This document shows positions 29,209-34,942 of a stretch of 64,000 bases of DNA, piece after piece. Origin of the DNA: Thiosocius teredinicola. GTDB taxonomy: Bacteria > Pseudomonadota > Gammaproteobacteria > Chromatiales > Chromatiaceae. The notes below the pieces were generated by a model. That model did not search any database. It was not told the origin of the DNA and saw nothing but the letters and a program-made list of their open reading frames with translations. The position numbers and the translations under genes are program-made. The stretch is from the NCBI RefSeq assembly GCF_002009425.1, contig NZ_CP019936.1, forward strand, positions 1,721,297-1,785,296, given 5' to 3'. The stretch's first letter is position 1. Each line of letters starts with the position of its first letter.

Positions 29209-29829
29209 CTAGTGTGAAATCAAGGTGCGTGCAATGCCGACCAATTGGCGGCGCTGCTTGTCGTCCATGTCCGAATAGATCGTCATCAGTTCGCGCAGTT
29301 CGTCGGGAAACGAGGCGCACAGGCCATCCGACTCGATATGTTGTTCGTCCAGCCACGTTCGCGGTTTGTCGCCGGCTTTCTCTATCTTGCGCGCCAGGCG
29401 ATCGCCGATATGCTTGAAGGGGTTATCGATGTGCTCGATGACCGTCGACGGTTTGAGATGCAGATCGGCGATGAAGGCCGCGGTGGCGTCCTGCGAGGTG
29501 TCGGCGGCCATCTGGTACAGATAGACGAGATTTTGATGACGCACTGCCTGCAGGTCGCGTTCGCCGGATCGAATCGGCCCGAGGCCAAACATGATCCAGC
29601 AAACAGAGGTGCCGGTGAGCTTGGCGATTGTTGTGACATCGTTGGGGTGGGGCATGGAGTAACCTGCCTCGTACCACGACAGCCTGTTCTCCGGCCATTT
29701 CGGCAACTTGCGTTTGAACTCCTTCGCCGATTTGAAGCCGGCCATCTTGCGTGCCTGCGCGATACGTTTGCCGATCTTTATGGCAAGAGGATCTTTGGTG
29801 CGCGAAGGGGATGAATGAATTTTTGTCAT
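29209..29829 (-). CDS. XRE-family helix-turn-helix transcriptional regulator (phage-repressor-like)
   Basis: HTH segment IGKRIAQARKMAGFKSAKEFKRKL...DVTTIAKLTGTSVCWIMFG. Start at the internal ATG (MTKIHSS). Sits at the edge of the tRNA islet. Confidence 0.65.
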   Translation of the reverse strand: MTKIHSSPSRTKDPLAIKIGKRIAQARKMAGFKSAKEFKRKLPKWPENRLSWYEAGYSMPHPNDVTTIAKLTGTSVCWIMFGLGPIRSGERDLQAVRHQNLVYLYQMAADTSQDATAAFIADLHLKPSTVIEHIDNPFKHIGDRLARKIEKAGDKPRTWLDEQHIESDGLCASFPDELRELMTIYSDMDDKQRRQLVGIARTLISH

Positions 29830-29926
29830 ATGCAAAAAAAGTTCTTGCAAAGTAAGTTTTGCCAATTATACTTTGCGCCATTCCAGCGGGGTATGCCCGC
29901 GATAACTTTTTTTACTGGAGTTGAAC

Positions 29927-30079
29927 GTGCGTTTTCTGAACGAGCCAAGAACACAAGCCGAACGCGATGTGCGGTCAGTACTGACCGTCGCGGGCAGTCT
30001 GTGCTCGTTTGCGGTCCGGGGTGTCGACGGGTTTGTTGGCACGCTTGGCGACAAGCAACTGAAGATTGGTATGAATTGA
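29927..30079 (+). CDS. small hypothetical ORF (50 aa, GTG start with GGAG Shine-Dalgarno), divergent from the XRE gene and ending before a strong terminator
   Basis: ggag-N8-GTG. Translation MRFLNEPRTQAERDVRSVLTVAGSLCSFAVRGVDGFVGTLGDKQLKIGMN. No homology recognised. Confidence 0.3.
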   Translation: MRFLNEPRTQAERDVRSVLTVAGSLCSFAVRGVDGFVGTLGDKQLKIGMN

Positions 30080-30135
30080 CGCACTGCGATTGAAGGATCG
30101 GAGGCGTCGAGATGGATTGACGCCTTCCGGAAAGA

Positions 30136-30167
30136 ACCCCGGTAGGTGATGAACCCCGGGGTTTTTT
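30136..30167 (+). terminator. rho-independent terminator (ccccgg...ccgggg followed by T7), preceded by a second 9-bp hairpin
   Basis: aaccccggtaggtgatgaaccccggggttttttt. An upstream hairpin ggaggcgtc...gacgcctcc sits at ~30099-30127. Confidence 0.7.
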
Positions 30168-30195
30168 TGTGCCCGGTGGTTGGGAATTGAACAAC

Positions 30196-30432
30196 AGGTC
30201 GCTGGTGTAACGGTTAGCACATCGGCCGGTCAGGAAAGCGTTGGTGATTCTGGGCAGATTGAGAAGTGTTCGAAACAGACTGAATCAAGGCGCGAATCGC
30301 GCGTAATAGCGAGCTATTGCGAAGATTCGTAACGCTTAGTCGGTTTGTTTCGAGCGCTTGGCAACTGACCACGAATTGCCAACGCTTTCCTCAAGCCGAA
30401 AGGTACAGGTTCGAATCCTGTGCGACCTACCA
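30196..30432 (+). tRNA. tRNA-Asp(GUC)-like gene interrupted in the anticodon loop by a 158-bp insertion (putative disrupted or unusually processed tRNA)
   Basis: 5' half: acceptor aggtcgc, D-arm gtgt-aacggtta-gcac, anticodon stem tcggc. 3' half ~165 nt downstream: gccga, variable aaggt, T-arm acagg-ttcgaat-cctgt, acceptor gcgacct, then a + cca. All four stems are fully complementary. Removing the insert and one TCA copy restores a 7-nt loop cggtcaa with anticodon GUC. Confidence 0.6.
30233..30390. mobile_element. 158-bp MITE-like insertion with 12-bp perfect terminal inverted repeats (GGAAAGCGTTGG...CCAACGCTTTCC) flanked by a 3-bp TCA direct repeat, inserted in the tRNA anticodon loop
   Basis: The TIRs are exact reverse complements. 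TCA is duplicated on both flanks. The interior contains a 7-bp hairpin (ttggcaa...ttgccaa). No coding capacity. Confidence 0.55.
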
Positions 30433-30436
30433 GACT

Positions 30437-30513
30437 GCGCTCATGGCCAAATGGATGAAGGCACCCGGTTGCGAACTGGGAGATTCCGGGTTCGAGTCCT
30501 GGTGAGCGCGCCA
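30437..30513 (+). tRNA. 77-nt cloverleaf tRNA with anticodon GCG (Arg-decoding) but a Ser/Leu-type D-arm (3-bp GCC/GGC stem, 11-nt loop) and a short variable loop; a non-canonical tRNA
   Basis: Acceptor gcgctca/tgagcgc, then g and an encoded CCA. Anticodon arm cccgg-ttGCGaa-ctggg with U33 and A37. T-arm ccggg-ttcgagt-cctgg. Flanked by a 10-bp inverted repeat cagactgcgc/gcgcagtctg. Confidence 0.6.
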
Positions 30514-30569
30514 AGTCGCGCAGTCTGCAGAGGCGGACTGCTTGTTCAACGTGAGAAAGGAGGTGTGCC

Positions 30570-30647
30570 ATGCCACGCATCAAATGGGACGACGAACGTT
30601 GGGAAGACCGGGCCAATAGCTTTCGAAAAGATGTCGAAGCGGAGTAA
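30570..30647 (+). CDS. 25-aa small ORF with a perfect AAGGAGG Shine-Dalgarno ([25 protein letters not shown])
   Basis: gagaaaggaggtgtgccATG. The ORF terminates with TAA, overlapping the next ORF start. Confidence 0.4.
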
Positions 30648-30825
30648 GGGTTATCCGTCGGAAACAAACGTGAAGCGCGGAGAACGCATCGTAAACAAAG
30701 ACAAGGAACTGCTGGAAAAATTGGGTCGGAACGATCCGTGCCCGTGCGGCTCGGGCCGTAGGTTTCAAGCAGTGCTGCCTCGAAAGGAAGTCCTTTCGAC
30801 AGCAGTGATCGCAAGGATTACGTAA
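30631..30825 (+). pseudogene. SEC-C-motif (YchJ/SecA C-terminal zinc-binding motif) small protein gene with an apparent +1 frameshift inside the metal-binding motif
   Basis: Translation reaches ...[21 protein letters not shown], then reads QAVLP... A 1-nt shift after ttt-c restores [13 protein letters not shown]-stop, matching the consensus CPCGSGKKFKKCC. Confidence 0.5.
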
Positions 30826-30854
30826 GAGATTGAAGGGCGGGTCGTATTGGCGCT

Positions 30855-30885
30855 GCTGTCCTTCAAATGAACTCCCTCGAAGCGG
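30855..30885 (+). repeat. tRNA-like acceptor/T-arm minihelix element (ccctcga-a-gcgg-ttcgact-ccgc-tcggggg)
   Basis: A 7-bp stem stacked on a 4-bp stem with a T-loop-like ttcgact loop. A related copy lies at 31096-31130. Confidence 0.4.
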
Positions 30886-31015
30886 TTCGACTCCGCTCGG
30901 GGGAACAAGGTCCTCATCAGGACGTTGCGTGACCGTGGTTGGGCTTCAGAACGCCCGCCGGCGCCGCCTGCACTGCAGTCCGGTGTACCGCACGCAATGG
31001 TCGATGGAGACTCCA

Positions 31016-31089
31016 CTGGATATAGCTCAGTTGGGTAGAGCAATCGCCTTACACGCGATCAGTCAGAGGTTCGAATCCTCTTATCTAGA
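31016..31089 (+). tRNA. tRNA-Val(UAC)
   Basis: Acceptor ctggata/tatctag (one G-U pair), D-arm gctc-agttgggta-gagc, anticodon arm atcgc-ctTACac-gcgat, T-arm agagg-ttcgaat-cctct, discriminator A. CCA is not encoded. Confidence 0.8.
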
Positions 31090-31095
31090 CCTGGA

Positions 31096-31130
31096 AAGGG
31101 CGAGAGCCCCGCGGTTCGATTCCGCTTACA
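31096..31130 (+). other. tRNA 3'-half-like fragment (hairpin gggc-gaga-gccc plus T-arm-like gcgg-ttcgatt-ccgc), related to the element at 30855-30885
   Basis: Contains a T-loop consensus ttcgatt but no matching 5' acceptor or D-arm. An inverted repeat ccgcgat...atcgcgg lies further downstream. Confidence 0.4.
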
Positions 31131-31429
31131 CCCGAGGCAAGGCCCCGGTGAGTTCCGCGATCGTGTATCGCGGATGTCGTCTCACAGCATGCTGGATGCC
31201 TGCGTGACGCCGAGCCGGTAACGGCCAGTGCGCTTCCCATCGCGATGGATGGTCAGACCAGGGACGGTCAGCCAGACAAAACGACCGGAAGCGCACCCGC
31301 TGCTATCGATCGATGTCACCCGCACCGTGCATGTGGGGCCGAGCCTTTTCGAAGCGCATCTTCGGGTGCGCTTCGCAAAGGCGAACGGAAGTTCACGAGG
31401 AATGCACTAACGATAACAAGGAGAAGAAA

Positions 31430-32572
31430 ATGATGATGTTCAAGCATTTTGTGGTCGCTCAGCACGAACGCGCCTTGCTGTACCGTGACCGTCAGTTGGT
31501 CGCCGTGCTTGCACCGGGCGTACACCGCTACTTCGACCCGACCGGTCGGATTTCGGCAACTGTGTTCGACCTGTCGCAGACCGAATTCGCGGATGCCAAC
31601 GCGGACCTGTTGATGAAGACCTCGGGCGACTTGCTCGACGGTTACCTGATGCAGGTCTTGATGGGTGATCACGAGGTCGGCCTGGTGTACCGCGACGACA
31701 CCTTCGTTACGGCATTGGCGCCGGGCGAGCGCAAGGTGTTCTGGAAGTTGCCGCACCAGTTGCGTGTTGAACGCGTTGCGGTCGACACCGAGCTGCAGGT
31801 GGCCAAGCAATTGGTCGATGCGATTGTGCGTACCAAAGGTGGCGTCGTGTCGCGTGCATTGATGCCGTTCGTCTACAGCGCCGAAGTGGCGGACAACCAG
31901 GTTGGCCTGTTGTTTGTCGACGGTGAGATGGCACAGGCATTGAAGCCGGGTTATTACGTGTACTGGGCGGTCAAACGCCGTGTGGTGGTTGAGCCGTACG
32001 ATACCCGTATCCAGGCCATGGAAGTGCAGGGCCAGGAGATCCTGACCCGCGACAAGGTGTCGCTGCGGGTGAACCTCGGTGCACAGTACCGTGTGGCCGA
32101 TGCGGTGAAGGCACGCGCTGATCTGCAACAGCCGATCGAATGGCTGTACCGTGAACTGCAGTTTGCGTTGCGCCAGGCGGTGGGTTCGCGCGATCTCGAC
32201 AAACTGTTGGAAGACAAGGAACGTGTCGACCACGAAGTGTTCGAGAAGGTGGTGGCCACGGCTGCAGAGCACGGTTTCGATCTGCGTAGCGTGGGTATCC
32301 GCGACGTCATCCTGCCGGGTGACATGAAGGATATCCTGAACCAGGTCGTGCAGGCCGAAAAAGCCGCTCAGGCGAACGTCATCAAGCGACGTGAAGAAAC
32401 GGCAGCGACCCGTTCGCTGTTGAACACGGCAAAGCTGATGGACGAGAACCCGACCTTGCTGCGCCTGAAAGAGTTGGAAACGCTCGAGAAGGTGACCGAG
32501 AAGGTCGATCGCCTGACCGTGTTTGGTGGTCTCGACGGCGTGTTGAAAGACACGGTCAAGATCAATGTTTAA
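31430..32572 (+). CDS. SPFH/band-7 (stomatin/flotillin-like) domain protein without a predicted TM, with a C-terminal coiled coil
   Basis: Start at the internal ATG MMMFKHF with an AAGGAGAAG Shine-Dalgarno. SPFH-like core VSLRVNLGAQYRVADAV. C-terminal Glu/Lys/Leu-rich helices. Confidence 0.7.
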   Translation: MMMFKHFVVAQHERALLYRDRQLVAVLAPGVHRYFDPTGRISATVFDLSQTEFADANADLLMKTSGDLLDGYLMQVLMGDHEVGLVYRDDTFVTALAPGERKVFWKLPHQLRVERVAVDTELQVAKQLVDAIVRTKGGVVSRALMPFVYSAEVADNQVGLLFVDGEMAQALKPGYYVYWAVKRRVVVEPYDTRIQAMEVQGQEILTRDKVSLRVNLGAQYRVADAVKARADLQQPIEWLYRELQFALRQAVGSRDLDKLLEDKERVDHEVFEKVVATAAEHGFDLRSVGIRDVILPGDMKDILNQVVQAEKAAQANVIKRREETAATRSLLNTAKLMDENPTLLRLKELETLEKVTEKVDRLTVFGGLDGVLKDTVKINV

Positions 32573-32653
32573 CGTTAACCCGCCCGGTCGTTGTGGTTCG
32601 CCACACGCCGGGCACAAACTCAATGGAAGACAACAGGACGAGGGAGAAGAACG

Positions 32654-33853
32654 ATGCCTGTTAAACATACCCTGAACAAGGGCAAGGTGCCGGTACATAT
32701 CTGGACCGAGGATGCCGAGTCGCAGGCGATGACGCAGTTGGCGAACATCGCGCAGCTGCCGTTCGTGCATCACCACGTGGCGGCGATGCCGGATGTGCAT
32801 GCGGGTATCGGTGCAACCGTCGGTTCGGTGATCCCGACCAAAGGCGCGATCGTGCCGGCGGCCGTTGGTGTGGATATCGGCTGCGGCATGAACGCGCTGC
32901 GTACCTCGCTGAAGGCCGAAGACCTGCCGGAGAGCCTGCGTCGCGTGCGAAACGCGGTCGAGGCGGCAATCCCGGTCGGCTTTGATATGCATAAGAACGA
33001 TCCGGTGAAGCGATCGACCATCACGCCGATGGCCAAAGGCCTGGACGTGATCATCGACAAGCATCCGGCGCTTGCGCGTATGCAGAAGAAGCGTCCGTAC
33101 GATGTCTGGGTGCGTCAACTGGCGACACTCGGCGGCGGCAACCACTTTATCGAGCTGTGCCTGGACGAGGTGGGTGATGTCTGGATCATGTTGCACTCCG
33201 GTTCACGTGGAATCGGCAACATCATCGGGCGCTACTTCATCAACCTGGCGCGACACGATATGGGTGACCAGCTGGGCCGACTGCCCGACAAAGATCTGGC
33301 GTACTTCACCGAGGGTGCGAAGCACTTCGAGGACTATGTCGAGGCGGTGCATTGGGCGCAGGACTACGCGATGGTCAACCGTCGGGAAATGATGCGCTCG
33401 ATCATCTCGGCACTGGAGAAGTATCTGCCGCCGTTCACGATCACCAAAGAGGCGATCAACTGCCACCATAACTATGTGGCACGTGAAACCCACTTCGGTG
33501 CCGACGTGTACGTAACGCGCAAAGGTGCGATCCGGGCCGGCGAAGGTGAGCTGGGCATCATCCCGGGCTCGATGGGCGCCAAGTCGTACATCGTGCGCGG
33601 TAAAGGCAATGCCGAGTCGTTCTGCTCGTGTTCGCACGGCGCGGGCCGACGCATGTCGCGTAGCAAGGCGAAGAAGCAGTTCAGCCAGACGGACCTGGAA
33701 CACCAGACCGAGGGTGTTGAATGTCGCAAAGACAGCGGGGTGATCGACGAGATCCCCGGTGCCTATAAAGACATCGACGTGGTAATGGCGAACCAGACCG
33801 ACCTGGTTGAAGTGGTACACACACTGAAACAGGTGCTGTGTGTGAAAGGCTGA
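32654..33853 (+). CDS. rtcB: RNA-splicing ligase RtcB (3'-phosphate/5'-hydroxyl nucleic acid ligase)
   Basis: Conserved motifs MPDVHAGIGATVGSV, GGGNHFIEL, HSGSRGIGN, NCHHNY and SHGAGR. Start at the internal ATG with a GGAGAAG Shine-Dalgarno. Confidence 0.9.
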   Translation: MPVKHTLNKGKVPVHIWTEDAESQAMTQLANIAQLPFVHHHVAAMPDVHAGIGATVGSVIPTKGAIVPAAVGVDIGCGMNALRTSLKAEDLPESLRRVRNAVEAAIPVGFDMHKNDPVKRSTITPMAKGLDVIIDKHPALARMQKKRPYDVWVRQLATLGGGNHFIELCLDEVGDVWIMLHSGSRGIGNIIGRYFINLARHDMGDQLGRLPDKDLAYFTEGAKHFEDYVEAVHWAQDYAMVNRREMMRSIISALEKYLPPFTITKEAINCHHNYVARETHFGADVYVTRKGAIRAGEGELGIIPGSMGAKSYIVRGKGNAESFCSCSHGAGRRMSRSKAKKQFSQTDLEHQTEGVECRKDSGVIDEIPGAYKDIDVVMANQTDLVEVVHTLKQVLCVKG

Positions 33854-33854
33854 G

Positions 33855-33881
33855 TGGGCCGGGGCTTCGGCCCACTCTTTT
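33855..33881 (+). terminator. rho-independent terminator after rtcB
   Basis: gtgggccggggcttcggcccac followed by tcttttt. Confidence 0.75.
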
Positions 33882-33894
33882 TACGAAACCAGTA

Positions 33895-34110
33895 ATGGAA
33901 GCAAAAGCAATGGCGAACAAGACCAACAAGGCAAGAAACCTGTTGCACAACCACCCGATGATGAAGAAGGGTGGCGTGCATCAGAAATCGAACAAGGCAC
34001 AACGTAAAAAGGAGAAAATGGCGCTGCGCAAGGCGTGGTTTTCTCCGAGTGCAGCCATGTCGGCTGTATTCGGAGAAGACCGTGCACGCATTGACATGGT
34101 TCATTGTTAA
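33895..34110 (+). CDS. small highly basic hypothetical protein (71 aa)
   Basis: ORF within listed 33838..34110, after the terminator. Lys/Arg-rich (KARNLLHNHPMMKKGGVHQKSNKAQRKKEKMALRKAW). Lower-GC region. Confidence 0.35.
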   Translation: MEAKAMANKTNKARNLLHNHPMMKKGGVHQKSNKAQRKKEKMALRKAWFSPSAAMSAVFGEDRARIDMVHC

Positions 34111-34223
34111 TTGGGGTTAGTTCTGTTCAGGCGATCGTTGCTCAATCAGTTAGACTCGATATTGTTGCTGCTGATGGAGTCGTGGTACCGTTTCGCGCCA
34201 ATGACTAGCAATGGAGATGCAGC

Positions 34224-34589
34224 ATGCCATGGCAATACAGTCAGAGTACTGGAGTACTCACAAGGGATGGGCGCGTAGTCGGAACCGGCTATTCGGGAGC
34301 AGCTGGCGTTGGGCGAAACAATCCAGATGCCGAGCGACTGACTGACGTGGGTCCGATACCGCGAGGTCAGTATCGAATTGGGGCTCAATATTCGCATCAG
34401 TCGAAAGGGCCCGTTACTATGGCGTTAAATCCCGTCAATCACTCAGCGCATGGTCGAATGCATTTTCTCATTCACGGAGACAGTATCCGGAATCCCGGCA
34501 ATGCTTCTCAAGGTTGTATTATTCTTCGGCGTGATATCCGAGAACGTATTGCCAACAGCGGTGATGCAGTTTTGGAGATTGTGAGATGA
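34224..34589 (+). CDS. Tlde1-like/DUF2778-type L,D-transpeptidase-fold toxin domain protein
   Basis: The motif HFLIHGDSIRNPGNASQGCIIL matches the His...Ser-x-Gly-Cys catalytic signature of YkuD/Tlde1 L,D-transpeptidase domains. Low-GC islet. GGAG Shine-Dalgarno. Confidence 0.6.
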   Translation: MPWQYSQSTGVLTRDGRVVGTGYSGAAGVGRNNPDAERLTDVGPIPRGQYRIGAQYSHQSKGPVTMALNPVNHSAHGRMHFLIHGDSIRNPGNASQGCIILRRDIRERIANSGDAVLEIVR

Positions 34590-34942
34590 CCCGTTTGTCT
34601 ATAGCGATCGTGGTGCTGACACTGTTTTCTAGTCCAGCGGTCGCCGACCCGGATTGTACTAGCCCCGATGCTTGGCCGGCCGGTATGGCGTTCACGCATC
34701 TGAAGAACGCGGGGTTGGTGACCAACTACAACTTGGATTTCGATAAAACGACCGTAACCCGATTGGCATCGGAAAGAGTGGGTGACGACCTCTATCGCCA
34801 GATTCACAGAGTGTCGTTTGTGAGAAAGTCTGGAGCAAAACTCGAAGCAATTACCGTCAATGATGCGTCGAATGAAGAGTGTTCCATGTCGGGCGTCGAC
34901 GTTTATGTCATCGAGAAGATGCTAGGCGACTTCAGCTCATAA
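34586..34942 (+). CDS. periplasmic immunity-like protein (signal peptide), translationally coupled to the upstream toxin-like gene
   Basis: ATGA overlap with the upstream gene. Signal peptide MTRLSIAIVVLTLFSSPAVA. Small soluble domain. Same low-GC islet. Confidence 0.55.
   Translation: MTRLSIAIVVLTLFSSPAVADPDCTSPDAWPAGMAFTHLKNAGLVTNYNLDFDKTTVTRLASERVGDDLYRQIHRVSFVRKSGAKLEAITVNDASNEECSMSGVDVYVIEKMLGDFSS

Follow-up and report, generated by a model that had tools for sequence, protein, structure and literature searches.

A tRNA-Arg(GCG) gene of an accessory tRNA array beside a Band-7/RtcB module in Thiosocius teredinicola

The window analysed here is a 64,000-nt stretch of Thiosocius teredinicola DNA (contig NZ_CP019936.1, positions 1,721,297 to 1,785,296), an organism placed in the Gammaproteobacteria, Chromatiales, Sedimenticolaceae. 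At 30437-30513 it carries a gene for a tRNA-Arg with the anticodon GCG, upstream of genes for a Band-7/SPFH slipin family protein and the RNA ligase RtcB. Accessory array tRNAs in an RtcB/Band-7 context are already known, and this gene belongs among them. Its only real departure from bacterial tRNA-Arg is G34. The modestly new point is that tRNA-Arg with G34 is the commoner and preferred state in Band-7-linked arrays. With moderate confidence we favour the reading that the gene encodes an accessory tRNA-Arg which reads CGC and CGU via G34 without TadA, and which comes from a portable array backing up translation beside RtcB.

ARAGORN called tRNA-Arg(gcg) on the plus strand with its ends exactly at 30437 and 30513, and Rfam model RF00005 matched 30437-30510 with 61.1 bits (E 9e-11, gathering score 29) over model positions 1-71 of 71. 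The full 77-nt cloverleaf with an encoded CCA, which an earlier note on this DNA had folded by hand, was thus recovered by both programs. The acceptor stem consists of 7 Watson-Crick pairs, the anticodon stem of 5 bp with one G·U among them, and the T-stem of 5 bp, while the D-stem has G10-C25, C11-G24 and C12-G23 with a closing A13·A22 mismatch. The D-loop reads A14 A15 U16 G18 G19 A20 U G A21, the anticodon loop UUGCGAA (U32 U33 G34 C35 G36 A37 A38) and the T-loop UUCGAGU; the variable loop is AGAUU (5 nt), and discriminator G73 is followed by CCA at 30511-30513. Both the GCG anticodon and the 5-nt variable loop of the earlier note stand in the RF00005 alignment. The conserved nucleotides are all there (U8, A14, G18G19, U33, U54-U55-C56 and A58), and the tertiary partners are complete (U8/A14, A15/U48, G18/U55, G19/C56 and U54/A58), A15/U48 being a permitted 15/48 combination. 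A thermodynamic fold of the 77 nt alone was unremarkable (z = -1.96) and did not return the cloverleaf; the tRNA status of 30437-30513 rests on the covariance model and the conserved nucleotides, not on the thermodynamic fold.

Isotype was scored with anticodon-masked hidden Markov model profiles for 16 isotypes, drawn from 377 distinct array tRNAs with the window lineage excluded; the leave-one-out accuracy of this classifier was 63/70. The window tRNA scored 37.7 bits for Arg, 21.1 for Leu, 20.7 for Lys and 7.3 for Ser, so that the isotype scoring suggested earlier put Arg clearly first. In Escherichia coli the Arg identity set comprises C35, G36 (or U36), A20 and a purine at 73, and 30437-30513 has A20 (D-loop ..UGGAUGA.., after G18G19), C35, G36 and G73. 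Judged by its sequence, the body of the RNA is Arg-type. The D-arm had been described in the earlier note as a 3-bp stem with an 11-nt loop and a Ser/Leu-like, class II look. The count is literally correct, with three Watson-Crick pairs and then A13·A22, but the class II character was not borne out, since the Leu and Ser profiles scored below Arg and the same arm occurs in an array tRNA-Arg. In the covariance alignment it takes the ordinary form of a stem of four positions, 13·22 being non-Watson-Crick, and a 9-nt loop. The long variable arm of class II tRNAs (>10 nt, with a stem) was not found in 30437-30513, which has 5 nt there. The homologue in question is a tRNA-Arg(ACG) at L089:2226-2302 (related loci are cited by number), which has both the D-arm TGGCCAAAT(T)GGAT.AAGGCACC and the AGATT variable loop; on this comparison the A13·A22 D-arm has been passed down within a single lineage of tRNA-Arg. 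A chimera of a class II tRNA and tRNA-Arg found no support in the covariance alignment, the L089 homologue or the masked isotype profiles.

Position 34 is a G and not the A34, modified to inosine, of tRNA-Arg(ICG). Most bacteria have tRNA-Arg(ACG -> ICG) plus CCG; documented cases of G34 are confined to some Mollicutes (PMC3711424), in agreement with the earlier remark that a G34 arginine anticodon is not usual in bacteria. Where TadA has been lost, G34 together with U34 replaces ICG (PMC3711424); the combination is an editing-independent reading of the four-codon box.

The comparison across related genomes covered 160 Band-7 loci, 80 from GTDB species genomes and 80 from metagenomes, all of them scanned for tRNAs, and the slot that holds the gene in the window often holds a tRNA array. 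In GTDB genomes and in marine-sediment metagenomes the arrays, with as many as 25 tRNAs, lay upstream of Band-7 and of a second, Band-7-proximal tRNA-like gene, the b7a-tRNA. The name b7a-tRNA and the prediction that goes with it, of a tRNA beside Band-7 and RtcB, go back to Burroughs & Aravind 2016; the YrlA paper of the Wolin laboratory (bioRxiv 10.1101/312249) quotes it as unvalidated. A tRNA-like gene occupied the b7a position in nearly all 160 loci. These proximal tRNAs (116 distinct sequences) lay 150-618 nt (median 410) upstream of Band-7; CCA was encoded in 15%, A34 was present in 18%, with 11 anticodons, and odd anticodons made up 15%. The distal (array) tRNAs, 377 distinct sequences lying further upstream, encoded CCA in 88% and had A34 in 2% (8/9 of these Arg-ACG), and odd anticodons of 2 or 4 nt were seen in 9/377. 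As far as these sequences tell, the distal genes behave as decoders and the proximal b7a gene does not. tRNA-Arg(GCG) has every distal trait, with an encoded CCA and a G34 within the wobble rules. The b7a family, whose features were derived here from 48 aligned loci, has an invariant D-arm (T8, G10 C11 T12 ... A24 G25 C26 of TAGCTCA..GGGTAGAGCA), in place of which tRNA-Arg(GCG) has TGGCCAAATGGATGAAGGCA. The idea in the earlier note of a tRNA-like regulatory RNA therefore fails for this gene, which has CCA and a rule-obeying anticodon; the description fits the b7a-tRNA of the window, at 31016-31091.

Arginine anticodons were surveyed in loci with at least 3 CCA-bearing tRNAs. Arg(GCG) was present in 14 array loci, as 13 distinct sequences forming 5 clusters at 90% identity, to which the window lineage adds a further one. 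Arg(ACG) was present in 5 array loci and never in the same locus as GCG, and GCG and UCG occurred together in 7 loci. Among 21 array tRNA-Arg genes, compensatory double changes were seen in 19 of the 21 cloverleaf pairs, so the class is under selection to fold as tRNA. The tertiary pair 19-56 also appears to covary, as G19/C56, C19/G56 and A19/U56. Swaps to C19-G56 (D-loop ..TGCA.., T-loop TTGAAGT) or A19-U56 (..TGAAT.., TTTAAGT) occur in array tRNA-Arg(GCG), at L095:970-1045, L097:444-519, L104:397-472 and L149:1315-1390, and at L091:980-1055 and its relatives. Across CCA-bearing array tRNAs in general, U56 goes with GA in the D-loop in 28/29 cases and G56 with GC in 7/8.

In the window, tRNA-Arg(GCG) is part of a module whose order is a divergent helix-turn-helix (HTH) gene, a split Lys-type tRNA, a gap of 4 nt, tRNA-Arg(GCG), b7a-tRNA, Band-7, RtcB and a small open reading frame (ORF). 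The features are as follows.

29209-29865, minus strand: 218-aa protein with a weak XRE/phage-repressor-like HTH (HTH_31, E 0.003), a candidate regulator bounding the tRNA cluster
30196-30432, plus strand: split tRNA gene (ARAGORN -i)
30437-30513, plus strand: tRNA-Arg(GCG), 77 nt, encoded CCA (ARAGORN, Rfam RF00005)
31016-31091, plus strand: b7a-tRNA, read as Val(tac), without encoded CCA (ARAGORN, Rfam)
31430-32572, plus strand: Band-7/SPFH slipin family protein, 380 aa (Pfam PF01145, 4e-25)
32591-33853, plus strand: RtcB RNA ligase (Pfam PF01139, 4e-131)
33838-34110, plus strand: small conserved ORF after RtcB (tblastn matches in 17 related loci)

tRNA-Arg(GCG) ends 917 nt upstream of the Band-7 gene, and the b7a slot is taken by 31016-31091, located 338 nt upstream of Band-7. 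The gene shares the strand of Band-7 and has the divergent HTH gene on one side and the b7a-tRNA on the other, the order seen in related loci; in 23 loci a homologue of the 218-aa protein likewise precedes the tRNA cluster in divergent orientation. The window Band-7 protein is 100% identical to 'slipin family protein [Thiosocius teredinicola]' (P0001). An RtcB homologue was found in the fetched flank of about half of the related loci, mostly just downstream of Band-7. The HTH gene, Band-7, RtcB and the small ORF recur jointly elsewhere, whereas the Mla, TPR, Tlde1 and LysR flanks of the window do not, so the module is accessory and shifts between genomic contexts. This bears out the accessory setting proposed in the earlier note, as the module recurs in many genomes amid unrelated flanking genes.

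Synteny points to the kind of array from which the gene comes. Arg(GCG) directly follows a Lys tRNA in 9 arrays (L091, L095, L097, L104, L107, L108, L111, L126 and L161), with spacers of 2-6 nt where measured (L091, L095, L097 and L104). The window spacer is 4 nt, the split gene ending directly before tRNA-Arg(GCG), so that the gene does stand right behind a disrupted tRNA as had been noticed earlier. ARAGORN -i read the split gene as tRNA-Asp(gtc), i(37,161). Intact Lys(ttt) genes of the nearest relatives (L001:3636-3711 and L084:985-1060) match its exons at 84-86% identity and the Lys(ttt) preceding Arg(gcg) in L095/L097/L104 matches them at 70-75%, and by this sequence similarity the split gene is an orthologue of array tRNA-Lys(UUU). 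In L001 and L002 the next member is kept instead, a Leu(UAG)-type tRNA with a short variable loop. Because of this synteny and the Lys orthology, the Thiosocius pair appears to be what is left of a Lys-Arg(GCG)-Leu-Gln... array.

Leu-type array members of this kind were seen more widely. They have UAG, CAG, CAA or UAA anticodons, are 76-79 nt long, and combine a Leu-type 3-bp D-stem and A73 with a variable region that is without the long arm (L002:1096-1172, L007:4250-4328, L074:3300-3376, L095:1051-1127 and L097:527-603). We know of no housekeeping bacterial tRNA-Leu with such a short-variable-arm architecture.

The insert of the split gene (about 30232-30392) is 161 nt long and interrupts the anticodon loop of the Lys(UUU)-type tRNA. 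It has a rod-like fold (-122.9 kcal/mol, z = -11), 52-nt inverted arms, 12-bp perfect terminal inverted repeats and TCA on either side. It looks like a small hairpin mobile element targeting anticodon loops, and an intron joined by RtcB is a possible alternative. A Leu-UAG-type tRNA at L001:3960-4200 has an anticodon-loop insert that shares a 55-nt core with it at 85% identity in the opposite orientation. Inserts of 130-210 nt were also seen in array tRNA-like genes at L019:2502-2714, L022:1958-2173 and L009:3764-4072; the three are related to one another in sequence, L019 and L022 at 91%, and have no sequence in common with the window insert. A search for a group I intron or any other Rfam family in the split tRNA and in the L019-type inserts gave no match.

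In the reading we favour, tRNA-Arg(GCG) would be transcribed, processed and charged by ArgRS, and would read CGC and CGU directly through G34; A-to-I editing by TadA would therefore not be needed. With the UCG partner found in full arrays, such a tRNA would make up a self-sufficient and horizontally portable decoding of CGN. Its role may be to keep up arginine decoding when housekeeping tRNAs are damaged or translation is stressed, alongside repair by RtcB. An experimental parallel is the TrcR regulon of Anabaena, where translational stress induces a tRNA array together with rtcB and a slipin gene. L-arrays, as long tRNA arrays are called, occur in many phyla, all classes of Proteobacteria included (PMC8421152). 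The Anabaena array shares its regulation with rtcB and rises under translational stress, and 23/26 of its tRNAs are charged (PMC8421152). Deletion of trcR raised rtcB by a factor of 77 and the slipin gene alr0740 by a factor of 42; the trn array is likewise repressed by TrcR (PMC10272220).

Several observations weigh against this reading. The window holds a remnant, with one intact and one split tRNA, no UCG partner and no long series (~10+) of tRNAs; since the array has shrunk to a remnant in Thiosocius, the contribution of the window copy may be small. No promoter of the tRNA pair was recognised. Codon usage gives no special need for the tRNA, CGY making up 75% of Arg codons in module genes vs 69% in flanking genes, so that the codon comparison proposed in the earlier note brought out no difference between islet and flanks. 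The sister MWSD01000261 (98% identical) has lost 10 nt, GATGAAGGCA, and with them the 3' half of the D-arm, and the sister MWSE01000040 (98% identical) is intact save for G18->C at a universally conserved base. These lesions suggest relaxed constraint on the gene. Arg(GCG) was also absent from the closest non-Thiosocius loci, L001-L003 and L084. In view of the lesions in the sisters, the present activity of tRNA-Arg(GCG) is uncertain.

The sister lesions also favour the view that the gene is a decaying relic, an intact-looking yet dispensable leftover of the array that is no longer expressed or needed and is heading for loss. The insert that breaks the adjoining Lys-type tRNA, the frameshifted look of a SEC-C-motif ORF in the spacer and the loss of the Arg gene in the four related loci just named would all fit decay. 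The sequence after the gene (30514-30545) also bears a weak similarity to the Leu(UAG)-type tRNA which comes next after Arg(GCG) in intact arrays, namely to its 5' half (p = 0.04-0.15, uncorrected). However, the window copy, which is the sole unblemished one among the three Thiosocius genomes, retains all stem pairs and the conserved tertiary nucleotides, and the array tRNA-Arg class is under structural selection. Across the three genomes (30050-34200 vs L081 and L083), the 1.3-kb non-coding tRNA/spacer region is ~2% diverged, while RtcB is far more so, its roughly 70 variable sites falling mostly on third codon positions. The tRNA region is thus not visibly drifting faster than neutral, and neutral decay of the gene cannot be called with confidence. 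The low divergence suggests selection on the whole stretch or recent recombination. Weighing both sides, we regard a relic as unlikely, though it deserves more weight than the readings that follow.

The arrays are rich in His, Asp, Asn, Lys, Phe, Gln, Leu and Arg tRNAs, classes which are targets of known anticodon nucleases, and tRNA-Arg(GCG) adjoins RtcB and a b7a-tRNA that clearly breaks decoding rules. Both points would suit a role other than decoding, in which the tRNA would draw off anticodon nucleases as a decoy or sponge, or serve Band-7/RtcB as substrate or cofactor, and the sponge idea has been proposed for the operonic tRNAs of Anabaena (PMC8421152). A pure decoy, on the other hand, would have no need of the CCA, wobble rules, identity elements and acceptor stems that the distal tRNAs keep, and aminoacylation of the 23/26 Anabaena tRNAs was observed in vivo (PMC8421152). 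We therefore hold a non-decoding role to be improbable. A wider proposal, which joins decoding to repair, is that the module is a chromosomal 'tRNA damage insurance' in which RtcB would reseal cut tRNAs and the array would supply replacements that do without host editing and resist toxins directed at the anticodon loop; we put it forward only tentatively and think it rather doubtful. If it were true, G34 would have been selected repeatedly (at least 5 lineages, never with ACG) to escape dependence on TadA and/or nucleases that recognise the ICG loop, and the window gene would be a working example of an insurance system, testable in culture.

CGC and CGU dominate the Arg codons of window genes, and the Mollicutes provide a precedent (PMC3711424) for another possibility, namely that TadA and tRNA-Arg(ACG) were lost in Thiosocius and that tRNA-Arg(GCG) became the normal decoder of CGC and CGU. 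The gene is, however, broken or mutated in the two 98%-identical sisters, which would be intolerable for the sole decoder of about 5% of all codons, and it is absent from the loci of the nearest relatives and sits in a mobile module. Housekeeping replacement is therefore very improbable.

The earlier note had also reported that a 10-nt inverted repeat brackets the gene, and the repeat proved to be perfect. It and a hairpin next to it are located as follows.

30431-30440, unstranded: left arm of the inverted repeat, CAGACTGCGC (repeat search)
30518-30527, unstranded: right arm of the inverted repeat, GCGCAGTCTG, 4 nt past CCA (repeat search)
30520-30541, plus strand: 9-bp GC-rich hairpin GCAGUCUGC/GCGGACUGC, then UUGUUC (repeat search, minimum-free-energy fold)

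The arms are 100% complementary and 77 nt apart, and are identical in the sister genomes; the left one takes in the two bases, CA, that end the upstream tRNA, then the whole 4-nt spacer and the first four bases of the tRNA-Arg. A null in which flanks were swapped reached 10 nt in 1/5000 trials. No bracketing repeat of more than 8 nt was found at the other tRNAs of related loci (n=198), and the repeat was rejected as a trait of the family. In the predicted fold of the precursor (30425-30550), leader GACU pairs with AGUC after CCA and the right arm is taken up by the 9-bp hairpin 30520-30541. The simplest reading of this model is that the bracket is leader-trailer complementarity plus a 3' hairpin that would end or stabilise the tRNA transcript. 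The hairpin may terminate transcription weakly or aid the processing or stability of the tRNA pair, and the terminator scan did not call it. Since 30514-30545 has the weak Leu(UAG)-like character mentioned above, the hairpin may have been recycled from a dead neighbour tRNA of that type, which we offer as a lead only.

The statistically unusual bracket is one of the points in favour of a tRNA borne by a phage or integrative element, with the repeat as an attachment-site or insertion footprint. GC content falls across about 28-38 kb of the window, and the divergent 218-aa ORF weakly resembles several PHROG transcriptional repressor families (4e-5 to 3e-3). Apart from this weak repressor similarity, the scanned neighbouring ORFs included no integrase, transposase or phage structural gene, and no module protein had a meaningful match to a PADLOC defence model. 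The bracket occurs at no other tRNA of the family, and its right arm is engaged in the local hairpin. In blastn searches in distant mode, 50,697 phage records and the plasmids contained no close relative of tRNA-Arg(GCG), the best phage match being 83% over 42 nt, to a tRNA-Asn; IMG/VR had no exact match to a 40-nt core of the gene and 5,426 E. coli genomes no close sequence match. Relatives of the Band-7 protein were absent from IMG/VR, and those in PLSDB were only on secondary or mislabelled chromosomes. These searches lent no support to a phage or plasmid origin, which leaves the phage-derived tRNA of the earlier note without close relatives among them, and we give the element-borne reading as a whole only a very slight chance.

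A promoter of the sigma-54 type, suggested by a motif TGGCACGCTT common to the window and an E. coli slipin locus, was rejected, as the window sequence does not have the consensus and only 1/138 loci does. In an E. coli version of the locus (L162), a nucleotidyltransferase gene accompanies the slipin gene in place of RtcB, and about 1,629 of the 5,426 complete genomes match the query over 80% or more of its length; upstream there is just a T-arm-like element, where ARAGORN calls no tRNA. Among the Band-7 plus b7a-tRNA loci L001-L080, about half had no RtcB within 5 kb. The small ORF at 33838-34110 gave no family match in protein-family searches. Right after the module, at 34224-34942, comes a Tlde1/YkuD-domain protein with a fold like that of L,D-transpeptidase effectors of type VI secretion, and then a 118-aa ORF that overlaps it; the pair is conserved solely in the sister genome L083 and could be a toxin-immunity pair.

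The spacer between tRNA-Arg and b7a-tRNA contains a 25-codon ORF with a strong Shine-Dalgarno sequence (30571-30648). At about 30680-30810 lies the small SEC-C-motif ORF (CPCGSG...), in which an extra T near 30763-30765 puts the final Cys-Cys out of frame; the frameshift is common to all three Thiosocius assemblies, and the two substitutions in the ORF are synonymous. T-arm-like motifs, GCGGTTCGACTCCGC and CGCGGTTCGATTCCGC, stand alone at 30871-30896 and 31107-31130 without a full tRNA; lost array members may have left them behind, or they may be additional T-loop modules.

The b7a-tRNA itself combined a conserved body with a hypervariable anticodon loop over the 116 distinct sequences; anticodons of every kind were seen, among them A34 types and a stop anticodon, as were loops of 6 or 8 nt. 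Between the window and its 98% identical sisters (L081:1805-1880 and L083:975-1050), it differs mainly at 31050-31051 (TAC vs ATC), and L083 differs additionally at 31063. Diversifying selection or a targeted mechanism acting on the b7a anticodon seems likely. The 7-mer CTTACAC of the b7a anticodon loop reappears at 31127-31133.

Bacteria almost universally read CGU, CGC and CGA by an inosine tRNA made by the essential TadA. A class of horizontally moving arrays tied to Band-7/RtcB prefers the editing-free G34 (plus U34), which points to portable, self-sufficient decoding sets in bacteria. T. teredinicola is a culturable organism and offers a single gene in which the expression, charging and protection conferred by spare tRNAs could be studied. 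The unvalidated b7a-tRNA, with its strikingly variable anticodon, also gains a richer genomic context.

The gene can be compared with several known systems. Phage tRNA clusters have been suggested to stand in for host tRNAs that anticodon nucleases have cleaved. Like them, tRNA-Arg(GCG) would be a portable spare that may circumvent damaged host tRNA biology or the dependence on it; unlike them, it is chromosomal and bacterial, stands with a repair ligase and has neither phage genes nor phage homologues about it. Y RNA genes (YrlA) in rsr-yrlBA-rtcBA operons likewise place a tRNA-like RNA gene beside RtcB. YrlA, however, is Ro60-binding and has a tRNA-like domain without an anticodon arm or free acceptor ends, whereas 30437-30513 is a complete tRNA; no TROVE domain was found in the neighbouring ORFs and no Rfam Y RNA match was obtained.

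With housekeeping tRNA-Arg(ICG) the gene shares the class I cloverleaf, A20 in the GGAU D-loop motif, C35, G36, A37, a purine discriminator and the 5-nt variable loop, and it differs from it in having G34 and not A34 and the A13·A22 mismatch. The usual base 32 of housekeeping tRNA-Arg is C32, and 30437-30513 has U32. The tRNA-Arg(GCG) of Pneumoniae-group Mollicutes also reads CGY through G34 without inosine, has a UCG partner and arose from ACG by an A34-to-G34 change (Yokobori et al. 2013, PMC3711424). In those bacteria, which have lost TadA, no other housekeeping tRNA decodes CGY; in the window, from a gammaproteobacterium with a large genome, the gene is an addition carried by a mobile module, presumably beside ICG. 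The b7a-tRNA is, like tRNA-Arg(GCG), tRNA-shaped and found with Band-7 and RtcB in the same module and on the same strand; its invariant D-arm, its usual want of CCA and its hypervariable loop set it apart from tRNA-Arg(GCG), which has none of these.

L-arrays of the Anabaena type consist, like the arrays described here, of tandem CCA-encoding tRNAs with short spacers that are redundant with housekeeping tRNAs and horizontally spread (PMC8421152). Both are linked to rtcB and slipin genes by neighbourhood or co-regulation, and both have some pseudogene members. The arrays described here differ in their preference for Arg(GCG), 'GCG' occurring 0 times in the main text of PMC8421152, and the window array differs in being a two-gene remnant in a gammaproteobacterial host. 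A further difference is that Band-7, b7a-tRNA and RtcB are here physically linked, on the same strand and within 1-4 kb.

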